A DNA stretch of 60,832 nt from positions 1-60,832 of the forward strand of contig JAMCQB010000142.1 of assembly GCA_023382175.1 (NCBI GenBank), in the 5' to 3' direction. The notes beneath the pieces were generated by a model that was not told where the DNA came from, ran no database searches, and was given only the letters and a program-made list of their open reading frames with translations. This stretch comes from Nitrospirota bacterium (GTDB taxonomy: Bacteria; Nitrospirota; Thermodesulfovibrionia; Thermodesulfovibrionales; UBA9159). The position numbers and the translations under genes are program-made. Positions 12,763 to 60,798 of the stretch are shown piece after piece; within the stretch, counting starts at the first letter, position 1, and every line of letters starts with the position of its first letter.

Positions 12763-12862
12763 AGAAGAGGGGGTTTCTCATTAATAAATTCACGTAGTTC
12801 GGGCATAATCACAGAATCCTCTCTTACCAAAAATGAATCTTATTAACGGAGGTGAGTCACCT

Positions 12863-13954
12863 ATGAGTAAGATCAAGGATGACACAAGCAGCATCTGGAC
12901 CAGTCTGGCAAAGAAGGGAGTATCAAGGAGGGACTTCATCAAGTTCTGCTCAACAATGGCGGCAACATTGGCCCTTCCCTCAAGCTTTGTTCCCCGGATC
13001 GTTGAAGCCCTCGAAAAGAAGCAGAGACCTTATGCAGTCTGGCTTGAGTTCCAGGATTGCGCAGGGGATTCTGAATCCATGCTGAGGGCGACAAAGCCGA
13101 CCATCGCAGAGGTCGTTCTGGATGTCATCTCCCTTGAGTACCACGAGACCATAATGGCAGGCTCAGGAAAGAGCGCAGAGAAAGCCCTCCAGGATGTGGT
13201 GAAAAACCAGAAGGGCAAGTACATCGCCATCGTTGAGGGAGCGATTCCCACAAAGGATGGAGGGATCTACTGCACTATCGGCGGCAAAACCGCCCTGGAT
13301 ATAGCCAAGGAAGTCTGCGGCAATGCGGCCATGAGCCTGGCCGTGGGATCCTGCGCCAGCTGGGGAGGAATTGCCAGCGCAAAGCCAAATCCCACAGGCG
13401 CGGTCGGAGTCGGAGCTGCAGTCCCCGGCATCACCTATGTCAACCTGCCTGGCTGTCCGATGAACGTCGAGAACGTGACAGCCACTGTGGTCCACTACCT
13501 CACCTTCGGCTCACTGCCTGCCCTTGACGGTGAACATCGTCCGCTCTTCGCCCACGGCAAAATTATTCATAATAATTGCGAGAGACGGGCTCACTTCGAT
13601 GCAGGACAGTTTGTGAGAAAATGGGGCGACGAAGGCCACCGGCTCGGCTGGTGCCTCTATGAGATGGGCTGCAAAGGGCCTGAAGCTCACTTCAATTGTC
13701 CCACCATTCGGTGGAACGGGGGAACAAGCTGGCCTGTACAGGCAGGACATCCCTGCTTCGCGTGTGCCAGCACCAATAACTGGGATGCCTTCGGACCAAT
13801 CTACAGCAGGCTTGAGAATGTGCCGGGAGCAGGATATCAGACCACTGCCGACAAGATCGGCGCCACTGTCGCTGCAGTTGCGGCAGCCGGTGTGGCAGCC
13901 CATGCAGTCATTCGGGCGGCAAAAGGCACACCACACAAGGAAGAGAAGGAATAA
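12863..13954 (+). CDS. [NiFe] hydrogenase small subunit (group 1, Tat-exported, C-terminal membrane anchor)
   Basis: GGAGGTG RBS before the ATG at 12863. Twin-arginine signal SRRDFIKFC. Fe-S ligand regions WLEFQDCAGDSES, GSCASWGG, PGCP, and CxxxxxxCxxP...C motifs near the C-terminus. Hydrophobic tail ATVAAVAAAGVAAHAVI. Confidence 0.9.
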   Translation: MSKIKDDTSSIWTSLAKKGVSRRDFIKFCSTMAATLALPSSFVPRIVEALEKKQRPYAVWLEFQDCAGDSESMLRATKPTIAEVVLDVISLEYHETIMAGSGKSAEKALQDVVKNQKGKYIAIVEGAIPTKDGGIYCTIGGKTALDIAKEVCGNAAMSLAVGSCASWGGIASAKPNPTGAVGVGAAVPGITYVNLPGCPMNVENVTATVVHYLTFGSLPALDGEHRPLFAHGKIIHNNCERRAHFDAGQFVRKWGDEGHRLGWCLYEMGCKGPEAHFNCPTIRWNGGTSWPVQAGHPCFACASTNNWDAFGPIYSRLENVPGAGYQTTADKIGATVAAVAAAGVAAHAVIRAAKGTPHKEEKE

Positions 13955-13978
13955 AAATATACTGAAGGAGGAGGATGT

Positions 13979-15688
13979 ATGGCGAAGATAGCGATTGATC
14001 CCATCACGAGGATTGAAGGACACCTGAGGATTGAGGCCCAGGTGGAAGGCGGCAAGGTCACGGATGCCTGGTCATCCGGCACCATGTGGCGAGGCATCGA
14101 AATCATCCTGAAAGGGAGGGATCCGAGGGAGTGCTGGGCGCTCACCTCCCGAATATGAGGGGTCTGAACAACGGTCCACGCACAGTGCTCCGTGAGAGCC
14201 GTGGAAAATGCCTTAGGGATCACCATTACCGATAACGCAAGGATCATCAGAAATATCATCAATGGGATCCAGTATGTTCAGGATCACGTAATACACTTCT
14301 ATCACCTCCATGCCCTGGACTGGGTCGATGTGGTCAGCGCCCTGAAGGCTGACCCTGCGAAAACAGCATCTCTTGCTCAATCCATATCCGACTGGGCCAA
14401 CTCTTCACCGACTTATTTTAAAACAGTACAGGGGAAGGTAAAGACCCTTGTGGAGAGCGGACAGTTGGGCATCTTTGCCAGCGGTTACTGGGGACATCCG
14501 GCCTACAAACTTCCACCTGAAGCAAACCTCATGGCGGTCGCCCATTATCTTGAAGCCCTGGACTGGCAGCGCGACGTCATAAGGATGCAGGCGCTTCTCG
14601 GCGCCAAGAACCCCCATCCCCAGACCTGGCTGGTGGGAGGTATGGCCATTCCCGTTGACCCGAACAGCCAGAACGCCCTGAACGCAGGGAGTATTGCCTT
14701 TTTGAAAGAACTGGCGACCAAGGCTCATGCCTTCGTAGAGAAGGTCTACATACCGGATCTCCTCGCCGTTGCTTCCTTCTATAAGGACTGGGCAGGGATT
14801 GGAGCCGGGGTCGGGAATTATCTCTCCTACGGTGAGTTCCAGAATGACAATGTGAGCAACACGACAAACGTCTGGCTTCCCGCAGGGTTCATCAGGAACA
14901 AGAATTTAGGCAAGGTCGAACCCATTGATCAGAAGCAGGTTACCGAAGACGTTGCCCATGCATGGTATAAATACACCGACGGCGATGACAAGGCAAAACA
15001 TCCGTGGGACGGCGAGACTAATCCGAACTATACCGGTCCGAAACCGCCCTATGAATTCCTCGACACCAACAAGAAGTACAGCTGGGTGAAAGGGATTCGC
15101 TACAATGGCCTTTCCACAGAGGTCGGTCCCCTTTCGAGGATGCTCATCGCGTATGCTTCGGGACACAAGCGCATCAAGGAAGTGGTGAATATGGTGCTTC
15201 AGAAGCTCGGAGTCGGGCCCGCAGCACTGTTCTCTACCCTCGGCCGCACCGCTGCAAGAGGCATCGAAACCCTGGTGACCGCGGAGATGCTCCCGGTCTG
15301 GATCGATGATCTGGCAGCGAAGATCAAGAGCGGAGATCTGCGCATCCATAACAACGAGAAATGGGACCCTTCCACATGGCCGAAGGAGGCAAAGGGGTTC
15401 GGCTTCCACGAGGCGCCCCGGGGCGCCCTGGGCCACTGGGTAGTGATCAAAGACGGCAAGGTCGCGAACTACCAGTGTGTAGTTCCGGGTGGCTGGAATT
15501 CTTCCCCCAGAGATGCGAAGGGTCAGAGGGGACCATACGAAGCAGCCCTCATGGATACGCCCATTAAAGATCCTAATAAACCCCTGGAAGTGCTGAGGAC
15601 CATCCATTCCTTCGACCCCTGCATGGCGTGTGCGATCCATGTGGTTGATTCGAACAGGGATCAGATCATAAAAGTCAGGGTGGTATAG
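13979..15688 (+). CDS. [NiFe] hydrogenase large subunit, interrupted by two in-frame TGA codons at 14156-14158 and 14165-14167 (candidate selenocysteines)
   Basis: AGGAGGAGGA RBS at 13966-13975 and ATG at 13979, in the same frame as ORF 14192..15688. The N-terminus [27 protein letters not shown]...[38 protein letters not shown] matches the large-subunit L1 region. C-terminal DPCMACAIH motif. Followed by cytochrome b, the maturation protease and hypC. Confidence 0.8.
14175..14205 (+). other. Stem-loop directly downstream of the two TGA codons (candidate bacterial SECIS-like element)
   Basis: UCCACG (14175-14180) pairs with CGUGGA (14200-14205). An inner GCUC (14187-14190) / GAGC (14196-14199) stem closes a CGUGA loop. 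The stem base lies 10 and 19 nt from the two UGAs. Folded by eye only. Confidence 0.3.
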
Positions 15689-15696
15689 GAGGAACT

Positions 15697-16341
15697 ATGG
15701 AAAAGAGGGTTTATGTTTGGGAGTTTCCTGTAAGGCTGACCCACTGGGTGAATTTCCTGAGCATACTGGCGCTCTCGATCACCGGCTTTTACATCGGGGC
15801 GCCCTTTCTGCATGCCATCAGGGAAAACCAGTTCATTATGGCGCAGATGCGGTTCATCCACTTCGTTTCCGCCTATGTCTTCACCGTGAGTTTCCTGATA
15901 CGGATTTACTGGCTGTTCATGGGCAATCAATACTCAAGGCTAAACCAGTTCATCTTCGTAAGCGGAGAACGATGGAAAAATCTCATCGACACCGCCCTGT
16001 TCTATGCATTTCTCAAGAAGGACCTCCCCCACTCCCCGGGGCACACCGGCATTGCCGGTCTTACCTACTTCATCATGTTCCTCATATTCCTTCTCGAGAT
16101 TTTCACAGGGTTCGCGCTCTACTCCGAAAGCCACCTGCCCGGGTTCATATGGACGTTCATGGGCGGATGGCTTTTTTCCATAATGGGAACCGGGACCGTG
16201 CGGCTCATTCACCATCTGCTCATGTGGGTGATCGGCGTCTTCACCATTGTCCATGTCTATGTCAGCTGGCATAATGACGTGATCGAAAAAAACGGGCTTA
16301 TGAGCTCTATTTTCAGCGGTTACAAGTCGATAGAGGAATAG
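15697..16341 (+). CDS. Ni/Fe-hydrogenase b-type cytochrome subunit
   Basis: 214 aa with four TM helices. N-terminus YVWEFPVRLTHWVNFLSILALSITGFYIG has the conserved His ligands typical of HyaC/HupC. Confidence 0.9.
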   Translation: MEKRVYVWEFPVRLTHWVNFLSILALSITGFYIGAPFLHAIRENQFIMAQMRFIHFVSAYVFTVSFLIRIYWLFMGNQYSRLNQFIFVSGERWKNLIDTALFYAFLKKDLPHSPGHTGIAGLTYFIMFLIFLLEIFTGFALYSESHLPGFIWTFMGGWLFSIMGTGTVRLIHHLLMWVIGVFTIVHVYVSWHNDVIEKNGLMSSIFSGYKSIEE

Positions 16342-16347
16342 GGGATA

Positions 16348-16845
16348 TTGACTACCACCGTCTTAGGTCTGGGCAATATCCTGTTGAGGGACGAGGGAGT
16401 CGGGGTTCATGCGGTAAACACCATCAAGGGACGGTATGCCTTTCCTCCTGATGTGGAGGTTATTGATGGCGGGACCTTGGGCCTCGACCTCCTTCCCCTT
16501 ATCGAAGACAGGGACAGGATTCTCTTCGTGGATGCCGTGGACTTCGGGAAGGAACCCGGCCACATCGGCATAATTGATGATGATGCCATCCCCTCTACCC
16601 TCCTGGCAAAGATGTCGGTTCACCATATCGGGCTCTCCGACGTGCTCTTTGCCGCAAAACTCCTGGACATAAAGCCGTCAAAAATCCGTCTTATCGGCAT
16701 ACAGCCTCAGTCCCTTGACGTAGGCCTTGATATGACCGAGTGCATCAGTGGTAAAATGGAAGTGATTATCAGCATGATCCTCGAAACATTAAAGGAGTGG
16801 AACATAGAATGTGCCTTGCGGTCCCCTCAGAAATTGTCAGCATAA
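16348..16845 (+). CDS. Hydrogenase maturation endopeptidase (HyaD/HybD family)
   Basis: 165 aa, TTG start. VLGLGNILLRDEGVGVHAV and DAVD motifs. Confidence 0.9.
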   Translation: MTTTVLGLGNILLRDEGVGVHAVNTIKGRYAFPPDVEVIDGGTLGLDLLPLIEDRDRILFVDAVDFGKEPGHIGIIDDDAIPSTLLAKMSVHHIGLSDVLFAAKLLDIKPSKIRLIGIQPQSLDVGLDMTECISGKMEVIISMILETLKEWNIECALRSPQKLSA

Positions 16846-17054
16846 ACGACCTCATGGCCACCATTGATGTGAACGGCGCACGGCGGGATATCAGCCTCAT
16901 GCTCCTCCCCGAAGAAGCTCAGGTGGGGGATTTTGTGATCGTGCATGCGGGCTTTGCCATCCAGAAGATCGACAGGGAGGCCGGCCAGGAGGCCCTCAGA
17001 CTGATAAAAGAGCTGGTGGAATCCGAAGAGTTCAAGGCAGAATACATGGAGTGA
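16809..17054 (+). CDS. hypC: Hydrogenase assembly chaperone HypC/HupF family
   Basis: The start is moved to the ATG at 16809, so the protein begins MCLAVPSEIV; the N-terminal Cys2 is essential in this family. Overlaps the protease gene. Ends with TGA at 17052-17054. Confidence 0.85.
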   Translation: MCLAVPSEIVSINDLMATIDVNGARRDISLMLLPEEAQVGDFVIVHAGFAIQKIDREAGQEALRLIKELVESEEFKAEYME

Positions 17055-17656
17055 AACGGTATATCCTCGCCATATCAGGCGCCAGCGGCTCTGTGTTCGG
17101 CGTCAGGGTCCTGGAAGCCATCCTTAGAAAGTCAGAAGTCCATCTTGTCATCTCTTCGCAGTCATTTTCGATCATCAGGCACGAAACCGGCATAGACTGG
17201 TCAGGAAAGACCGATGCCGAGGTGCAGAAAAAGATAAGGACATACTTCAGATCCCGCAGGATTCACTATTACAATGAAACCGATCTCGCTGCCCCCCTTT
17301 CCAGCGGCTCTTTTATCACAGACGGCATGCTCGTGGTGCCCTGTTCCATGAAGACCCTTTCAGGCATCGCTCATGGCTACGCAAACAACCTCACTGAACG
17401 GGCAGCGGATGTGACGATAAAAGAAGGAAGGCCCCTGCTTCTCGCTCCACGGGAAATGCCTTTCAGCGCAATTCATCTCGAAAACATGCTAAGGCTTGCA
17501 CGGATTGGGGTGAAGATAGCGCCTCCCGTGCCTGCGTTCTACCAGAAACCGAAAGAGCTTAGCGATATCGTTGATTTCGTTGCAGGGAAGATACTGGATT
17601 CCTTCGGCATCCCTCACGATCTCTTCACAAGATGGGGAGGACAAGAGACTACCTGA
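17051..17656 (+). CDS. ubiX: Flavin prenyltransferase UbiX
   Basis: 201 aa, GTG start. ISGASGSVFGVRVLE N-terminus and VVPCSMKTLSGIAHGYANNL motif. Confidence 0.9.
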   Translation: MKRYILAISGASGSVFGVRVLEAILRKSEVHLVISSQSFSIIRHETGIDWSGKTDAEVQKKIRTYFRSRRIHYYNETDLAAPLSSGSFITDGMLVVPCSMKTLSGIAHGYANNLTERAADVTIKEGRPLLLAPREMPFSAIHLENMLRLARIGVKIAPPVPAFYQKPKELSDIVDFVAGKILDSFGIPHDLFTRWGGQETT

Positions 17657-20522
17657 AAAGCCCATTCAGAAGCTTGTCCACAGTTCTGGGGTCTCTACAT
17701 TCTATGAGTTGCCATTTCCCATAGCCACTGTGATAGTTGACAGCCTTAACCCACCGTTCTGTTGCCGTCCTTTTCTGCCTGTCCTGTTCGGATTCATAGC
17801 CTTTTACCTCAAGGATCACCGTGGATTCGCCGCTATCGGTACTGCACCTTATCAGGAAGTCGGGATAGTAATAGTGCCGGACACCGAGGAAGTCATAGGG
17901 TATCGAGAAGTCGAGATGGTCATTCTTCACATAGGAAACGACGTTCGGATTATCCTCAAGGTAAAACGATACCGTGTGCTCCCATGAGCGGTTATCAGTA
18001 ACTACGTGGCTTACGTGGCTCTTCAATGTCGGATGCGCCCTTCTCACCGTACGGAAAAGAACCTCAGAAGTCGATCCTTTGGGCCTGAATCTTTCGATGA
18101 TCGGTAACAACGGGGCTTCACCTTCATCAACAGCGGGTTCAATAGCGGCAAGCAATCTTTCGACAATGAGTTGTATATACTTCTCAAGCGCTATCTCATT
18201 CGGCTTTGCATCAATGAATCTGACCTTCTCCTCAATAAACCTTTTCACAATAGACAAGACCTGCGGGAAAAGAATCTCCCTTGCCTGCCACTGAAATTTC
18301 TCCCTATCCTTCAACGAATTCGTTATTCTCCTGGCAATCTCGAAGATGATTTCTTTCAGCCGCCTTGTCTCATGGAAAGGATTTCGATCCTGATATGCCT
18401 CTTTGCCGGGACCCAACCGTGTGGGGAAGCCGATTTTGTATCCGACCGCACCCTTAACCACAACCTTAGTCGGCTCTTTGCTGGGGTCTACGGTGATTTC
18501 TTTCAGCTTAGACATATCAATCTTTATTCTGCTCTTCACATCAAAGACGAATCCCTCCACACGCGGAAATTCTATCTTCAGATGAACTCGATCCTTCAAT
18601 GCCTGTACAAGCGTTGAAGGCGGCGGAGGCGGTGTCGGCCCCTTACCCTTCTTCTTTACGGGGATGACCTCAAAGGGTATGCCGTACACGTCGACATATT
18701 CCTCCGGCAGCATCCCGGTTTCATCAAGTGTGTAGTTCATCCGTCTAAGACCTCGGCCGACGACCTGTTCGCAAAGAAGCTGGGATGTGAACGCTCTTAA
18801 TCCGAATATCTGTGTCACGTTGTTTGCGTCCCATCCTTCGGTAAGCATACCTACAGACACGACGCATCTCACATCCTTGCCCGGAGGATCGCCTTGGCCT
18901 TGCCATTCGGTCTTGCCGACTGTTGCAACTCTTAATCTCAATCCCTGCGCCACTTCCTGTTTTGTCTGTGTGCCGTCCTCACTTTCGGCTTCTCCCAAAA
19001 GCTTTGTGTCGATCCTCATGCTGGGCTGGAAGGACTCACTATTTCCCAATAAGTCAGGGAATAGCTTACCAGCGGTAAATATCCTCTGTTTTTCGACCTT
19101 CTTCTCCCCACTAATATATTCAAAGATTAGCTCTGCAAGGTCTGTATTATCACAAACACAGATCATCACGGGCGGGACAGGGAAGTCGTCCCTCTCGAAG
19201 TCCTTAAAGGTCTTCTTCCATTCCCCTGCGAGCATGGTAAGAGCGCCTTCTGCTTCTCTGAAAACGGATTCGGGCTTTGGTTTCCTTCTCTGTGTCGCCT
19301 TCTCGGCTCCGGGTAAAGATTCGTTTATAGTTCTCCATAAATGGAAATACTTAGGTATGGGCTGTCCCGAATTATCATCAACCGGAACTCGTGGTATTTT
19401 GACGATACCGCTTTCAATGGCATCCACAAGACCGAAGTCAGATACAAGCCAGGGCAACGGCGACCCTTCGGGATAGCCGCTCCCCTGGATATAGAAAGGC
19501 GTTGCCGACAAGTCAACGCAAAGGTTAATCTTCCGAGCAAAGTTTATCTTGTCCAGTCCGCCGATCCAAATCGTGGCTTCCTCTTTCTCTTCCTTTAGAT
19601 TTTTCCTTTCTTCGCCGCTAAGTTTCTTCAGTTCCTCTTCATTCTCAAATGGCGCGGGTCTGTAAGCATGATGTGCCTCGTCATTGAAGACCAGTATGTT
19701 TTCCTTGCCTGATAACTCCTTGAGTGTCCTGTTACAAAAAGCCCTCTCGCTTTCTTCCCCGCGTTGTATGACGCTTCTCTTCTTGCTGTCATCAACGGGT
19801 AAGAAAGAATGCCAGTTGGTTATGAAAAACTTCCCTTTTGAAAGCATATCGAGCATTGAACGGGGAACGAGATCGAACTTTTCATAGTAGTTCTCCGGAT
19901 TTGACGGATAAAGAACGGACAGGCGTTCTTTTACCGTAAGGTTCGGACATACCACCAGTACCGCATCTGAAAACCTCTTGTCTTGCCTGTACTGTGCTTT
20001 GTTGATCACAGACCATGCTGCAAGCATTGCCATGACAAGAGTCTTTCCACTTCCCGTCGCCATTTTGCAGCCGTACCGCTTTAATGGTTTATATCCTTTT
20101 GCAAGGTCCGACTCTGCGGGAAGGTCTGGCGGGATGGTTATGCCTTTCGGGTTCTTCGGCATTATCTCGGTCAGATAGATGATCGTCTCAACTGCTTCTA
20201 CTTGACAGAAGAACAGCTTTCTTTCTCTATCGGGTAAATTCCAATGTTGAAGCAGTCTTTCGGTAACTCCTGTGCCCCCTTTATATCCACCGTCGCGCCA
20301 TTCCTTGACCCTCTGCCGTATTTTGTTGATCAGCTCAAGCTCTTTGAACTGTTCTTCAACAAATAATGCAACCTGAGTATCAGCCCTCTTCCCCGTTCGG
20401 AAATAATATCCGGCGGGACGTCTGCCTGACATCTTCTTCGGCTGCCCTTCGTCATAAATCCAGTATTCCTTCGGCTCCTCGAAGGGATTGTTCAGGATCG
20501 GATTATCAACGGCAAGTGACAT
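17649..20522 (-). CDS. res: Type III restriction endonuclease, Res subunit (SF2 helicase plus PD-(D/E)xK nuclease)
   Basis: 957 aa. Helicase motif I MATGSGKT and motif II FNDEAHHAY. C-terminal nuclease YYPDFLIRC...VILEVKG. The 3' end overlaps the 3' end of ubiX by 8 nt (convergent). Confidence 0.9.
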   Translation of the reverse strand: MSLAVDNPILNNPFEEPKEYWIYDEGQPKKMSGRRPAGYYFRTGKRADTQVALFVEEQFKELELINKIRQRVKEWRDGGYKGGTGVTERLLQHWNLPDRERKLFFCQVEAVETIIYLTEIMPKNPKGITIPPDLPAESDLAKGYKPLKRYGCKMATGSGKTLVMAMLAAWSVINKAQYRQDKRFSDAVLVVCPNLTVKERLSVLYPSNPENYYEKFDLVPRSMLDMLSKGKFFITNWHSFLPVDDSKKRSVIQRGEESERAFCNRTLKELSGKENILVFNDEAHHAYRPAPFENEEELKKLSGEERKNLKEEKEEATIWIGGLDKINFARKINLCVDLSATPFYIQGSGYPEGSPLPWLVSDFGLVDAIESGIVKIPRVPVDDNSGQPIPKYFHLWRTINESLPGAEKATQRRKPKPESVFREAEGALTMLAGEWKKTFKDFERDDFPVPPVMICVCDNTDLAELIFEYISGEKKVEKQRIFTAGKLFPDLLGNSESFQPSMRIDTKLLGEAESEDGTQTKQEVAQGLRLRVATVGKTEWQGQGDPPGKDVRCVVSVGMLTEGWDANNVTQIFGLRAFTSQLLCEQVVGRGLRRMNYTLDETGMLPEEYVDVYGIPFEVIPVKKKGKGPTPPPPPSTLVQALKDRVHLKIEFPRVEGFVFDVKSRIKIDMSKLKEITVDPSKEPTKVVVKGAVGYKIGFPTRLGPGKEAYQDRNPFHETRRLKEIIFEIARRITNSLKDREKFQWQAREILFPQVLSIVKRFIEEKVRFIDAKPNEIALEKYIQLIVERLLAAIEPAVDEGEAPLLPIIERFRPKGSTSEVLFRTVRRAHPTLKSHVSHVVTDNRSWEHTVSFYLEDNPNVVSYVKNDHLDFSIPYDFLGVRHYYYPDFLIRCSTDSGESTVILEVKGYESEQDRQKRTATERWVKAVNYHSGYGKWQLIECRDPRTVDKLLNGLFR

Positions 20523-27707: not shown

Positions 27708-28210
27708 TGTGAGTTGCACTTTCTCCTTGCCCAAATACCATGATTTCTGGTATAAATAAAGTAAGTTCAGCTTGAGGGCAGTTTGCCTGCCCTGTTTGTG
27801 ATGGGTGAAAAAAGTTGATCCGGCAAATTAGATCTTTTGGGAGTCAGAGTAAGGAGTGCGGTGTGCATGCCGGGCATTCATTTGCCCGGAAGCCTGAAGG
27901 CTCCTTCAAGACACCCACCTATATTGTAGGCGGATCTAATTCTTCACTGACACGGCAGGGCGGGTTTATTTTGCGGGTTCTCATGATCGCTTTGCTTTTT
28001 GCGAGGAATTTAAATAAAAAAATAGAGGAGTCTGGTAAAATGCCTACCTTCACCAGGGGTTGCCCCATTTCAGGCAGCCGGAAAGACCGACCTGTTCCGG
28101 AAGATTCCTCTTCATTCCAAAGCGTATTTTCTTTCCTGCTCTCCTCGCAATAGCATAATAGACACAGCAAGCCCGCGCTACCCTCATCGGAAATATACTA
28201 CGAAAGGGGG

Positions 28211-32265: not shown

Positions 32266-32828
32266 GATGCTTCGTTGCCATAAACCTCGAGGATTCCCTG
32301 AAAAAAGAGATCGGTTGCGTAATAAGGGGCCTGACTGAAGGCAGAGGGGATGTGAAGTGGGTCCCTGCTGAGAACCTTCATATCACCCTTAAATTCCTGG
32401 GGGATGCTTCCGATGATTCTGTGCAAAGGGTAAAAGAACATTTGGCAGGGATTTCGAAACGTCACGGTCCCTTTGAGGTCAAACTCTATGGTGTCGGCGT
32501 ATTTCCTGACAAGAGAAGGCCCAGGGTGGTCTGGATAGATCTCCTGGATTCAAAGGAGCTGATAAAACTTCAAGAAGCAGTTGAAACTTCTCTTATAACT
32601 GTAGGTTTTACAAAGGAAGATAGGCCTTTCTCCCCTCACCTCACCATTGGAAGGATACGGTCACTGAAAGCCAGGGATCTTTTCATCGGGGCTATAGAAA
32701 CACTTAAAGACAAGGATTTTGGTAATATAGGAATCAACAAAATCTCTTTAATGAAAAGTGACTTAAAACCCACAGGGGCTCAGTATTCCATTGTGGCTGA
32801 GTTTCCCCTAATAAAGGAGGCACAATGA
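32262..32828 (+). CDS. thpR: RNA 2',3'-cyclic phosphodiesterase (2H phosphoesterase, ThpR/LigT)
   Basis: 188 aa. Two HxT/S motifs, HITLKF and HLTIGR. Confidence 0.85.
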
Positions 32829-33820
32829 CCAATAAAGACAAGATAAAGGCCCTGGATATGGCCATCTCCCAGATCGAACGGAGCTTCGGCAAGGGGGCCA
32901 TAATGAAGCTCGGGGCTGCTGAGGTGGCGGAAGGGGTGCAGGCAATACCCACAGGCTCCATCACCCTGGATATTGCCACAGGAATCGGCGGCTATCCCCG
33001 GGGGAGGGTCATAGAGATATTCGGACCCGAGTCTTCGGGAAAGACGACCCTTGCCCTTAATGCCATTGCCGAGGCCCAGAAGGCCGGAGGAGTAGCGGCA
33101 TTCATTGATGCAGAGCACGCCCTGGATATAAATTATGCAAAGAGGATCGGGGTGAAGGTAGAGGACCTGCTGGTATCGCAGCCTGACACCGGCGAACAGG
33201 CCCTGGAGGTGGCCGAGGCCCTTGTGAGAAGCGGCGCTGTTGACATCGTCGTGATCGATTCTGTTGCAGCCCTTGTGCCGAAGGCCGAGATAGAAGGGGA
33301 AATGGGCGATTCTCTTCCCGGGCTCCAGGCCAGGCTCATGAGCCAGGCATTAAGGAAGCTTACCGCCGCCATATCAAAATCCCTCACCACGGTGGTCTTC
33401 ATCAACCAGATACGGATGAAGATAGGGGTGATGTTCGGCAACCCTGAGACCACCACCGGGGGCAATGCCTTGAAGTTCTATTCATCCATGAGGCTCGATA
33501 TACGGAGGATAGACAATCTCAAGGAAAATCAGGAGACCGTGGGAGGAAGGGTAAGGGTAAAAGTGGTGAAGAACAAGGTCGCTCCTCCTTTCAAACAGGC
33601 TGAGTTTGATATATACTTTAATGAAGGAATATCAAGGGTCGGAGAGCTTGTGGACCTGGGAGTCGATGGTGGAATCATCGAGAAATCCGGGGCATGGTAC
33701 AGTTACAGCGGCTCCAGGATCGGCCAGGGAAGGGAGAATGCCAAGGAGTTCCTGAAGAACAATCCCGAAGTCTGCGAGGCGATCCAGCAAAAAATCATGG
33801 AACTTAAGATGAGGAGATGA
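32825..33820 (+). CDS. recA: Recombinase RecA
   Basis: 331 aa. Walker [10 protein letters not shown], plus FIDAEHALD and the rest of the canonical RecA sequence. Ends with TGA at 33818-33820. Confidence 0.98.
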
Positions 33821-58960: not shown

Positions 58961-60280
58961 CTAAAATGGCAGTATCTTCGGCATGCGCATGCCCTTTTTC
59001 CCTTTGAACATCTTCAGCATCTTCTTCATCTCCACATACTGCTTGATCACCCGGTTCACATCGGTGACGGTGGTGCCGCTCCCGGCAGCGATCCTCCTCC
59101 GCCTGCTGCCGTTCAGGAGATTGTGGTTCCGCCGTTCTTCCGCGGTCATGGAATTGATAATTGCCTCCACCTTCACAAACTCCCTCTCGTCCACCGATAC
59201 GTTCTTGACCTTGCTGAAGCCCGGGATCATGCCCAGAAGGTTTTCGACGGGCCCCATGCTCCGTATCTTCTTGAGCTGCTCCTTCAGGTCTTCAAAGGTA
59301 AAGGACTCCCCGAGGATCTTCTCCTGGAGTTTTTCTGCTTCCTTCCTGTCAAAGGCCTGCTCTGCCTGTTCGATAAGACTCAGCATATCCCCCATCCCCA
59401 GGATCCTTGACGCGATGCGATCAGGATGGAAGGCCTCGAGCATTTCGATCTTTTCCCCTGTGCCGATGAACTTTATCGGTTTTCCGGTAATGGCCCGTAT
59501 GGAAAGGGCCGCGCCTCCCCGGGCATCGCCGTCCATCTTGGTGAGGATGATGCCGTCGATGCCGATCTGTTCATTGAAGTTCTTTGCGATATTCACCGCA
59601 TCCTGTCCGGTCATGGCATCGGCCACAAAAAGGGTTTCCTTAGGCTTCACCTTCGCCTTTATCTCCGAGAGCTCCTTCATCAGGCCCTCATCGATATGGA
59701 GCCTTCCCGCGGTATCCATGATCAACACATCATGGGCGTCCAGTTTCGCCTTTCTCACCGCCTCATCGCAGAGCGCCACGGGGTCTTTCATCTCCTTGGA
59801 ATGGAAGACCGGCACTTCAAGCTGCTTTCCCAGGGTGATCAACTGATCGATGGCTGCAGGGCGCTGAAGGTCAGCAGCCACCAGCAAGGGGCGTCTGCCC
59901 TCCTTCTTGAAAAGGCGGGCAAGCTTTGCAGAGGTCGTAGTCTTTCCTGAACCGTGAAGGCCGACCATCATGATGACAGTGGGGGGATTGGGCGAAAGAT
60001 GTATCTTCGCTCCGGCGCCCCCGAGAAGCCCGCAGAGTTCATTATTGACGATCTTGATCACCTGCTGCCCGGGGGTGAGGCTCTCAAGGACTTCCTTGCC
60101 CACCGCCTTCGTCTTCACATTCTGGATAAAGTCCTTTACGACCTTGAAATTAACATCAGCTTCCAGAAGAGCGATACGCACCTCTTTCAGCGCCGCGTCA
60201 ATATCCTCTTCCTTGAGAATGCCCCTGCTTCTCAGTTTCTTGAATATGGATTCGAGTTTCTCACTTAAGGCTTCGAGCAT
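58961..60280 (-). CDS. ffh: Signal recognition particle protein Ffh
   Basis: 439 aa. NG domain with GLHGSGKTTT and DTAGR, and a Met-rich M domain. In ffh-rpsP synteny. Confidence 0.97.
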   Translation of the reverse strand: MLEALSEKLESIFKKLRSRGILKEEDIDAALKEVRIALLEADVNFKVVKDFIQNVKTKAVGKEVLESLTPGQQVIKIVNNELCGLLGGAGAKIHLSPNPPTVIMMVGLHGSGKTTTSAKLARLFKKEGRRPLLVAADLQRPAAIDQLITLGKQLEVPVFHSKEMKDPVALCDEAVRKAKLDAHDVLIMDTAGRLHIDEGLMKELSEIKAKVKPKETLFVADAMTGQDAVNIAKNFNEQIGIDGIILTKMDGDARGGAALSIRAITGKPIKFIGTGEKIEMLEAFHPDRIASRILGMGDMLSLIEQAEQAFDRKEAEKLQEKILGESFTFEDLKEQLKKIRSMGPVENLLGMIPGFSKVKNVSVDEREFVKVEAIINSMTAEERRNHNLLNGSRRRRIAAGSGTTVTDVNRVIKQYVEMKKMLKMFKGKKGMRMPKILPF

Positions 60281-60798
60281 TACAGGAGTTCCTCAACCTC
60301 TTTCGAAAGGGTTTCGGCAAGGCCCGGGAAGAAGCCCATGTGGCGCTTCACCACCTTGCCTTCTTTATCAATGATGAACATCACCGGGATACCGCTTACT
60401 CCATAGGCAACATTCACGCTCCCGTTGTCCACCATCACCGGGTAGACAACGGCATACTCCTTCACAAAGTCGCGTACCTTGGAAAGGGCATCCCCACCCT
60501 TGTCAACGGAAATGCCGAGAAGCTGGAAGTTCTTATCCCGGAACTTCTCGGACACCTTGTTCAGTTCGGGGATCGATTCTCTGCATGGCGGGCACCAGGT
60601 GGCCCAGAACTCAATGATTACTACCTTGCCTCTGAGCTCGGAAAGCCGTATAGCGCTTCCCTGGAGGCTGGTGAAGGTAAATTCAGGAGCCTTGCCGCTT
60701 TCACTGACAATCTTTTCCTCTGCCTTCTTGCAGGACGCGGCAAAAAGGCCGAGAGCAACGAGGGACACGAGCACGCAGATTTTTTTCAGATGATCCAC
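60280..60798 (-). CDS. TlpA/ResA-like thioredoxin-fold thiol:disulfide oxidoreductase lipoprotein
   Basis: 172 aa. Lipobox LFAASC, WATWCPPCRESIPEL active site. Confidence 0.85.
   Translation of the reverse strand: MDHLKKICVLVSLVALGLFAASCKKAEEKIVSESGKAPEFTFTSLQGSAIRLSELRGKVVIIEFWATWCPPCRESIPELNKVSEKFRDKNFQLLGISVDKGGDALSKVRDFVKEYAVVYPVMVDNGSVNVAYGVSGIPVMFIIDKEGKVVKRHMGFFPGLAETLSKEVEELL

Follow-up and report, generated by a model that had tools for sequence, protein, structure and literature searches.

The window analysed here is a 60,832-nucleotide stretch of DNA from a Nitrospirota bacterium (assembly GCA_023382175.1, contig JAMCQB010000142.1, positions 1 to 60,832 of the forward strand). It contains a gene for the large subunit of a [NiFe]-hydrogenase in which the codons for both cysteines of the amino-terminal nickel-binding motif are TGA. 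The two codons are almost certainly recoded rather than read as terminators, and both probably receive selenocysteine (Sec), at least under selenium-replete conditions. The fuller proposal, which we favour by a small measure, is that of a widespread clade of Group 1 hydrogenases in the Nitrospirota, Chloroflexota, Thermodesulfobacteriota and Methylomirabilota with a Ni(Se)2(S)2 site. Both UGA codons of these enzymes would be decoded from a single selenocysteine insertion sequence (SECIS), neighbouring ATA and ACG codons would be part of the recoding signal, and the motif would have evolved stepwise from CxxC through CxxU to UxxU (C standing for a cysteine codon and U for TGA), with repeated reversions. 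An earlier note, made from the letters of this DNA alone, had suggested a functional recoded gene with candidate Sec at both positions; conservation, purifying selection and a co-varying hairpin now speak strongly for that suggestion. The observation is real and the gene functional.

The large-subunit frame (residues 1–569, positions 13979–15688, on the forward strand like the other features described unless stated) begins at the ATG at 13979, ahead of which the Shine-Dalgarno-like sequence AGGAGGAGGA can be read directly at 13966–13975, and ends with the TAG at 15686–15688. It contains exactly two internal stops, both TGA: UGA1 (14156–14158, codon 60) and UGA2 (14165–14167, codon 63). From translation, comparison with relatives and alignment with the hydrogenase of Allochromatium vinosum (PDB entry 3MYR), they fall on both cysteines of the RICGVC of the latter, and the amino-terminal motif R-x-C-G-x-C-x3-H (L1) reads R-I-U-G-V-U-T-T-V-H, with a UGA at either cysteine column. 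From what is known of Group 1 structures, we take the UGA1 column to be a terminal ligand of the nickel and the UGA2 column to be a ligand bridging the nickel and the iron. The carboxy-terminal nickel-binding motif D-P-C-x-x-C-x2-H (L2) is present as DPCMACAIH (15614–15640), with TGC and TGT as cysteine codons; it aligns with DPCIACAVH of 3MYR and is followed by a 15-residue extension beyond His554. Programs that call open reading frames (ORFs) report two separate products, one of 59 residues and one of 498 residues, the latter beginning at the GTG at 14192. The earlier note had joined the ATG at 13979 to the ORF 14192–15688 as one frame of about 569 codons with a strong ribosome binding site, had recognised the two TGA codons as its sole internal stops, located on the L1 cysteine columns, and had described the carboxy-terminal motif as all-cysteine; each of these points is confirmed.

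The DNA compared comprised one syntenic contig and two sets of 80 loci each, one taken from species-representative genomes and the other from metagenomes, with 154 distinct sequences from independent assemblies, and both L1 codons were read directly from the DNA. Loci with TGA/TGA are named UxxU, those with TGY/TGA CxxU and those with TGY/TGY CxxC, and UxxU and CxxU together are called Sec-type (n = 54). TGA is kept at both columns in 40 of the distinct sequences and at the second column in 14 more; the remaining 100 are CxxC, and UxxC does not occur. By annotation, the UxxU carriers belong to Nitrospirota/Thermodesulfovibrio, to Thermodesulfobacteriota, to Methylomirabilia and to Chloroflexota (Anaerolineae, Thermoflexus). 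The Sec-type sequences stem from at least four phyla, a recurrence well beyond chance, and both columns keep TGA in spite of deep divergence, at 65–96% protein identity. The carboxy-terminal motif has TGA in none of 162 loci and is DPCxxC with cysteines wherever the carboxy-terminus is readable. The same pattern is visible in protein databases, where about 72 of the best 120 clusters at 90% identity (78–96% identical) are only 491–506 amino acids long and share the same amino-terminal cut point, and where full-length relatives with RICGVC (564–572 residues) appear from 77% identity downwards.

Apart from the TGA codons, the Sec-type frames are intact where readable, without the scattered stops or frameshifts that would mark decay. 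They are open for at least 57 codons upstream and, where the contig allows, for 505–524 codons downstream, with the exception of loci L031 and L118. In L031, a masked stretch of N breaks the frame. L118 (Ga0307378_10082094) is a CxxU locus that is open for only 492 codons after UGA2 and that is also one of two Sec-types to fail the hairpin test described below, pair 35-47 being a C-C mismatch; either decay of this copy or an error in the sequence could be the cause. For the 40 sequences of the UxxU class, the ratio of non-synonymous to synonymous substitution rates (dN/dS) is 0.09 over the 57 codons before UGA1 and 0.07 over the 45 codons after UGA2, and all variation in the two codons that separate the UGAs is synonymous (Gly as GGG, GGC or GGT and Val as GTC, GTT or GTG). 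The low dN/dS on both sides and the purely synonymous change between the stops imply that ribosomes must read through both codons in frame. The view of the earlier note that the gene is not decaying is thus upheld.

In a neighbour-joining tree, calculated without support values, Sec-types are interleaved with Cys-types in several subclades. Two Cys-type loci, L016 (L016:6166) and L073 (L073:958), retain the ATA codon discussed below and a TCC-GTG-CGN remnant of the hairpin with a broken stem, which suggests reversion from Sec-type to cysteine. A single metagenome-assembled genome, DATHDF01 (Dissulfurispiraceae SMAG_U12386), holds both a CxxU locus (L013) and a CxxC locus (L015), which are sisters in the tree; these could be a selenium-dependent isoenzyme pair or the result of a recent duplication.

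Downstream of the two UGA codons, a SECIS-like hairpin is located at 14181–14203, supported by single-sequence folds, RNAalifold, covariation, class-specificity and a freeze of synonymous sites. Its core (14187–14199) consists of four base pairs between GCUC (14187–14190) and GAGC (14196–14199), closed by the apical loop CGUGA (14191–14195). In the window, a bulged extension adds the pair G14185-C14200 and a lower stem of CAC (14181–14183) with GUG (14201–14203). This lower stem is specific to the clade of the window (the window, L001, L014, L084 and L085), in which Val is encoded there by GTG, a codon rare at this place among the other Sec-types. Generally, the hairpins of the Sec-types have a stem of 6–7 base pairs (6–8 in relatives) and a CGUGA or CGUGC pentaloop. 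In a subgroup with TCG as the Ser codon the register is moved by one, so that the triloop is GGU and the stem, of 8 base pairs, has a bulged A, and L090 has a GUC triloop.

Alignments were made of 28 (A1) and of all 54 (A2) Sec-type sequences, numbered so that column 1 is position 14153 of the window, UGA1 occupies columns 4–6 and UGA2 columns 13–15. RNAalifold predicts a single hairpin, in which columns 34–38 are paired with columns 44–48, and 28 of 28 Sec-types, when folded singly, form a hairpin at the same place, with a mean of −9.0 kcal/mol as against −6.4 kcal/mol for the Cys-types (p = 3e-5). Three base pairs show compensatory changes in A2: pair 34-48 (AU 18, UA 13, GC 8), pair 35-47 (GC 35, CG 8) and pair 36-46 (CG 49, UA 4). 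Altogether, 89.8% of the cells in A2 pair, and the covariation score is 0.235, compared to 0.097 ± 0.017 for shuffled alignments, of which 0 of 500 reach it, and to a maximum of 0.089 after sliding of the partners by 1–3 columns; the values for A1 are similar. The hairpin is also specific to its class. A stem of at least 4 base pairs at the fixed site, with a G in the first two loop positions, is found in 52 of 54 Sec-types and in 2 of 100 Cys-types, loop residues G40-U41 are invariant in all 54 Sec-types, and CxxU and UxxU share an identical hairpin. Over the 5' arm with its loop, five codons in all, the entropy of the third codon position in Sec-types is 0.58, 0.38, 0.73, 0.13 and 0.23 bits, whereas it is 1.6–1.8 bits in the Cys-types at the same codons and 1.5–2.0 bits in the codons flanking the hairpin in the Sec-types themselves, which serve as an internal control for relatedness. 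The codons in question are Ser TCC or TCG, Val GTG (53 of 54) and Arg AGA or CGA (52 of 54).

The apical loop starts 23 nucleotides after UGA2 and 32 nucleotides after UGA1. The consensus for bacterial SECIS elements prescribes a loop of 3–9 nucleotides, a stem of 4–16 base pairs, a G at the first or second loop position, with G or U usually next to it on the 3' side, a spacing of 16–37 nucleotides and a minimum free energy (MFE) of −7.5 kcal/mol or lower (PMC13188914). The hairpin agrees with the bSECISearch values for loop, stem, loop G and spacing with respect to both UGAs. Part of an earlier proposal thus stands, namely that one element could serve both codons from within consensus distance, and another part does not: the stem-loop named at the time, at 14175–14205 (ACGG..CACG with CGUG..CCGU), is 87.5% paired but lies almost entirely in invariant coding columns, and its covariation is at the level of the shuffled alignments. 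That pairing is the MFE structure in the window sequence only (−11.8 kcal/mol), and the conserved hairpin is the shorter one inside it. Folding of the whole region 14150–14230 gives an MFE z-score of 0.47, which is uninformative for a short hairpin in a coding sequence.

Other candidate structures near the two codons were considered and discarded. An ACGG/CCGU hairpin, taken as a second SECIS for UGA1, is limited to a Chloroflexota subgroup, and a long-range UGAGG/CCUUA helix, seen in the MFE fold, lacks conservation because the Leu codon involved is variable. RNAalifold on columns 1–34 of the UxxU sequences gave no second conserved structure upstream of the hairpin. A search of Rfam returned only 6S RNA above gathering thresholds, and a permissive scan of 14100–14300 gave chance matches only.

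Outside the hairpin, two codons are chosen in a class-specific manner. The Ile codon directly 5' of UGA1 (14153–14155) is ATA, as it is in 35 of 40 UxxU sequences, compared to 3 of 14 CxxU sequences and 4 of the 53 CxxC sequences with an Ile codon there, and the second Thr codon after UGA2 (14171–14173) is ACG in 38 of 40 UxxU, 7 of 14 CxxU and 50 of 100 CxxC sequences; neither set of counts is corrected for phylogeny. No conserved structure was found that accounts for the ATA and ACG choices. ATA makes up 27% of the Ile codons in the genome, and simple pausing at a rare codon is therefore unsupported as an explanation.

In the decoding route that we propose, both UGA1, for the terminal ligand, and UGA2, for the bridging ligand, would be read as Sec in a full-length subunit, under the direction of one SECIS hairpin of the bacterial type within the coding sequence. 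SelB with its Sec-tRNA(Sec) would bind the hairpin and decode UGA1, two ordinary elongation steps would follow, and another ternary complex, again on this hairpin, would then decode UGA2, so that both codons would be served before the ribosome unwinds the structure. The start of the stem is located 17–20 nucleotides after UGA2, or 13 nucleotides when the lower CAC/GUG stem of the window clade is counted. Given the ribosomal mRNA channel, the hairpin should at these distances stay folded with either UGA in the A site. The product would have the site R-I-U-G-V-U-T-T-V-H and a nickel centre with two selenium and two sulphur ligands. The presence of CxxU and the absence of UxxC fit a history in which the SECIS was first set up for the bridging position and UGA1 was added later.

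Several observations weigh against double Sec insertion. The E. coli machinery tolerates little change in the spacing between UGA and SECIS, and one hairpin would here have to serve two UGAs 9 nucleotides apart. The hairpin of the window is among the weakest in the family, with four base pairs and a bulged extension; taken alone it has −6.9 to −7.0 kcal/mol, a value that varies with the length folded and falls just short of −7.5 kcal/mol, where most of its relatives have −8 to −11 kcal/mol, and in the window sequence it competes with the more stable local fold of −11.8 kcal/mol. Both the covariation and the codon statistics ignore phylogeny. No genes for the Sec machinery were found nearby: ARAGORN detected no tRNA-Sec, either in the window or among 27 loci of the Sec-type, about 45 ORFs of the window scanned with NCBIfam gave no sel genes, and tblastn with E. 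coli SelA, SelB and SelD against all loci gave only two weak SelD-family matches, both in Cys-type loci and probably HypE-like. The 10 kb past the right edge of the window, as represented by L164 with an identical Ffh, encode AddAB, HEAT, thioredoxin and similar proteins and no sel genes. A scan of the window and all loci for in-frame TGA codons with Cys-aligned homologues returned the hydrogenase and antisense shadow ORFs only. UGA recoding efficiency measured in E. coli is 30–40% (PMC4513850), which would make two UGAs costly. When the same two ligands were replaced in E. coli Hyd-1, activity fell to 3% of native in the C76U variant and to 13% in the C79U variant, and both were sensitive to O2. 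In favour of the double-Sec reading, all four single Cys-to-Sec variants of that enzyme keep activity (PMC8020662).

The main rival to Sec at both positions is the insertion of cysteine at one or both codons by the same SECIS/SelB route, using a selC*-type tRNA-Cys(UCA) (tRNA-ReC), either constitutively or only at selenium scarcity, in which case the mature enzyme would be all-cysteine or would contain a single selenium. It owes this rank to the occurrence of selC* tRNA-Cys genes in Thermodesulfovibrio genomes and in Nitrospirae-like metagenomic contigs (PMC5389517), and to the survey of Group 4 hydrogenases by Takano et al. (Front Microbiol, Sept 2026, in silico), in which tRNA-ReC is significantly commoner in genomes with UXXU enzymes and the same caveat is raised (PMC13582414). 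An opal-reading selC* tRNA-Cys has moreover translated a Sec UGA as cysteine in E. coli (PMC5389517), and DNA alone cannot tell Sec from Cys insertion, which is a further point against our preferred reading. We nevertheless consider cysteine insertion unlikely: a TGY codon would be cheaper and reversion to it takes one base, yet TGA and a constrained SECIS have been held over deep divergence, and every selC*-containing genome also had the full Sec apparatus, the Thermodesulfovibrio genomes among them with complete selA/B/C/D (Mukai et al., PMC5389517). Less probable again, by a clear step, is that UGA2 alone is a true Sec codon and that UGA1 is passed by near-cognate read-through or context-dependent suppression, aided by ATA and ACG. 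UGA2 is the nearer of the two to the SECIS, no Sec-type lacks TGA at its column, 14 CxxU loci contrast with no UxxC locus, the hairpin does not differ between CxxU and UxxU, both context codons are preferred specifically in UxxU (ATA in 35 of 40; ACG in 38 of 40, as against 7 of 14 CxxU), and the 32 nucleotides of UGA1 are near the upper end of the 16–37 nucleotide consensus. That distance is still within range, however, and near-cognate read-through would place Trp, Arg or Cys on a strictly conserved nickel ligand, with low efficiency. UxxU motifs served by one SECIS have also been predicted elsewhere, both in Group 4 hydrogenases and in further selenoprotein families of bacteria.

The remaining alternatives do away with recoding by SECIS, and each has hardly any probability. 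That the gene is a pseudogene, or that the TGAs are assembly or sequencing errors and no full-length protein is made, would agree with the 59- and 498-amino-acid products of the gene callers. This alternative may be regarded as effectively refuted by the occurrence of TGA/TGA in 40 distinct sequences from independent assemblies, in which no other stop or frameshift is present except at the N run of L031, by dN/dS values below 0.1 on both sides with only synonymous change between the stops, by the intact accessory genes and by the co-varying, class-specific hairpin. A split gene, with a 59-residue peptide and a separate 498-residue protein without both amino-terminal ligands, is just as improbable. 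The ORF 14192–15688 does start with GTG and databases do carry the separate protein, but the codons from UGA1 to this GTG (G-V, T-T-V-H-A-Q-C-S) are conserved as protein with synonymous variation and must therefore be translated, the enzyme would lose two of its four nickel ligands and a conserved His, and the GTG itself is a conserved Val codon in the SECIS loop. Genome-wide reassignment of UGA (code 4 or code 25 type), the least probable of all, has nothing in its favour beyond the two codons and is already refuted by the stop codons of the 35 family-supported genes in the window (TGA 9, TAG 13, TAA 13). The TGA-ended genes, which stop at the expected carboxy-termini, include recA, hypC, ubiX, pilT and mlaE/F, and the TGA of recA is followed four bases later by the start of pilT. 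UGA is thus not reassigned genome-wide, as had been thought on the strength of recA and hypC alone.

The large subunit is embedded in an operon of which all accessory genes are intact, as the earlier note had stated and as NCBIfam matches now document. The small subunit (12833–13954) matches TIGR00391 (hydA, 1.3e-127) and carries a twin-arginine translocation (TAT) signal (TIGR01409). After the large subunit follow a b-type cytochrome subunit (15697–16341; TIGR02125, 1.8e-49, above the cut-off), a maturation endopeptidase of the HyaD/HybD type (16348–16845; TIGR00140, 1.6e-45, above the cut-off) and a HypC/HupF chaperone gene (16797–17054; TIGR00074, 4.2e-21), which ends in a genuine TGA stop. 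A TAT-exported small subunit, a carboxy-terminal extension of the large subunit, a HyaD/HybD protease, a b-type cytochrome and HypC together agree with the architecture of Group 1. Because of these operon families and of its best structural relatives, the enzyme is classified here, from its sequence, as a membrane-bound, cytochrome-b-linked Group 1 uptake [NiFe]-hydrogenase. The best PDB match is 3MYR, the membrane-bound hydrogenase of A. vinosum (720 bits), followed by Salmonella Hyd-5, E. coli Hyd-1 and Desulfovibrio enzymes.

Among the NCBIfam models, those for the large subunits of hydrogenase-2 and hydrogenase-1 match at about 1e-190 and remain below their equivalog cut-offs (634 bits for NF007778, cut-off 969, and 627.5 bits for NF007550, cut-off 1101), which indicates a Group 1 subgroup different from E. 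coli Hyd-1 and Hyd-2. The classical [NiFeSe] enzymes are more distant: their PDB chains match weakly (about 300 bits, over residues 177–564 only), and their models also score below cut-off (HysA NF045518, 396 bits, cut-off 780; NiFeSe_hydrog NF033181, 547 bits, cut-off 600). The best family and structure matches all belong to Group 1 and none to Group 4, and models of the NuoD/FpoD type reach only 1e-9, over residues 13–107. Relatives at 63–70% identity are found in Geobacter/Geomonas, Acidobacteriota, Deferribacter and Roseiflexus, and a Deferribacter cluster of the same architecture, encoding small subunit, large subunit, cytochrome b and protease, has been called Group 1f (PMC6896113). Judging from these relatives and this cluster, the subgroup is likely to be Group 1f.

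The closest parallel among known systems is found in Group 4. Takano et al. describe 47 Group 4 sequences with amino-terminal CXXU (27), UXXU (16) or UXXC (4), of which UXXC and UXXU were previously unrecognised; Groups 1–3 were excluded by HydDB classification (PMC13582414). The statement in the earlier note that no enzyme with Sec at both L1 positions had been described is thereby overtaken, UXXU having been reported in silico for Group 4. The Group 4 UXXU enzymes resemble the window gene in having amino-terminal Sec codons, a single downstream SECIS-like hairpin with the loop G in first or second position, a mosaic of Sec and Cys forms across phyla and an all-cysteine carboxy-terminal motif, and the same caveat concerning tRNA-ReC applies to both. 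They differ in that the window enzyme is a periplasmic, TAT-exported and cytochrome-b-linked Group 1 enzyme, and in that UxxU is the commonest Sec form in its family (40, against 14 CxxU and no UxxC), where in Group 4 CXXU is. In its sequence features the enzyme appears to work like the Group 4 UXXU hydrogenases, but it belongs neither to Group 4 nor to the classical [NiFeSe] family.

The classical Group 1a [NiFeSe] hydrogenases (Desulfomicrobium baculatum and HysAB of Desulfovibrio vulgaris Hildenborough; PDB entries 1CC1, 2WPN and 5JSH) share the Group 1 fold and the periplasmic heterodimer, and they have a selenium ligand to the nickel inserted at a UGA via a SECIS, as predicted for the window gene. 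Like those of Groups 3a and 3c, however, they contain one Sec, at the first, terminal cysteine of the carboxy-terminal DPCxxC, whereas in the window gene this motif is all-cysteine and the two candidate Sec codons are amino-terminal, one of them bridging. According to Takano et al., Groups 1 and 3 have Sec at the carboxy-terminal motif except for three CXXU sequences (PMC13582414); as cited there, two of these belong to Group 1 and the third to Group 3 (Baltazar et al. 2011). In that account, they have Sec at the second, bridging amino-terminal position, like our 14 CxxU relatives, and none of the three has Sec at both positions. The engineered C76U and C79U variants of E. coli Hyd-1 (Evans et al. 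2021, PMC8020662) concern the same two Group 1 ligand positions, and they assembled and oxidised H2. They are single substitutions, obtained by UAG suppression, while the natural enzymes carry both; the latter are presumably co-adapted to the two substitutions.

Two reviews (2022 and May 2026) list hydrogenase selenoproteins as UxxC only and mention UxxU for Prx-like, FmdB-family and metal-binding proteins (PMC9312934, PMC13188914). These UxxU selenoproteins (the first being Prx-like thiol:disulfide oxidoreductases) likewise have two UGAs with two sense codons between them and presumably one SECIS, but they are redox or metal-binding CxxC proteins without a hydrogenase site, and all are computational predictions. 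In the literature searched, with many subscription papers outside its scope, no prior report of UxxU in a Group 1 hydrogenase was found.

Selenium in hydrogenases has so far been understood via the terminal carboxy-terminal ligand, in terms of high H2-production activity and O2 resistance, and the May 2026 review places [NiFeSe] hydrogenases exclusively in sulfate reducers and methanogens. If the proposal is true, an abundant natural family of Group 1 enzymes in which the other terminal ligand and a bridging ligand contain selenium would form a new natural experiment on Ni-Fe-Se sites, in the class that is best studied and most tractable for crystallography and electrochemistry, and it would allow direct comparison with the C76U and C79U variants of Hyd-1. 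With one conserved SECIS behind two UGAs that are three codons apart, the family would also be a clean system for the reach of SelB and for context codons, and the spacing between SelB and SECIS would be far more elastic in UxxU bacteria than in E. coli. Public databases annotate the UxxU genes as truncated proteins of 495–506 residues plus a 59-residue fragment, as a result of which surveys mis-score the hydrogenase content and the selenoproteomes of the lineages that carry them.

Some further features of the window were noted. RecA (32825–33820) is 90–92% identical to proteins of Thermodesulfovibrionales/Nitrospirota, and the organism is accordingly assigned to an uncultured member of the Thermodesulfovibrionales. 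An Ffh identical to that of the window is encoded on contig JAMCZW010000096.1 of GCA_023485285.1. A ResA-like gene (60280–60798), considered as another selenoprotein, encodes WCPPC and is of the cysteine type. The small subunit of the hydrogenase contains the motif WLEFQDCAGDSE near residue 70, with an Asp at the second cysteine of C-x-G-C, a motif of the proximal Fe-S cluster; in the family as a whole Asn or Asp prevails at this site, with counts of Asn (50), Asp (36) or Cys (4) in CxxC loci and Asp (16), Asn (8) or Cys (12) in UxxU loci, which suggests a family-wide non-canonical ligand of the proximal cluster. The 6S/SsrS RNA (Rfam RF00013, 87.9 bits) is located at 27781–27970. Directly downstream of the hydrogenase-UbiX block, a restriction endonuclease of the BPTD_3080 family (957 amino acids, 1026 bits) is encoded on the reverse strand at 17649–20522; the syntenic relative L001 has MazE/PIN genes at the same place, which makes this a variable spot.

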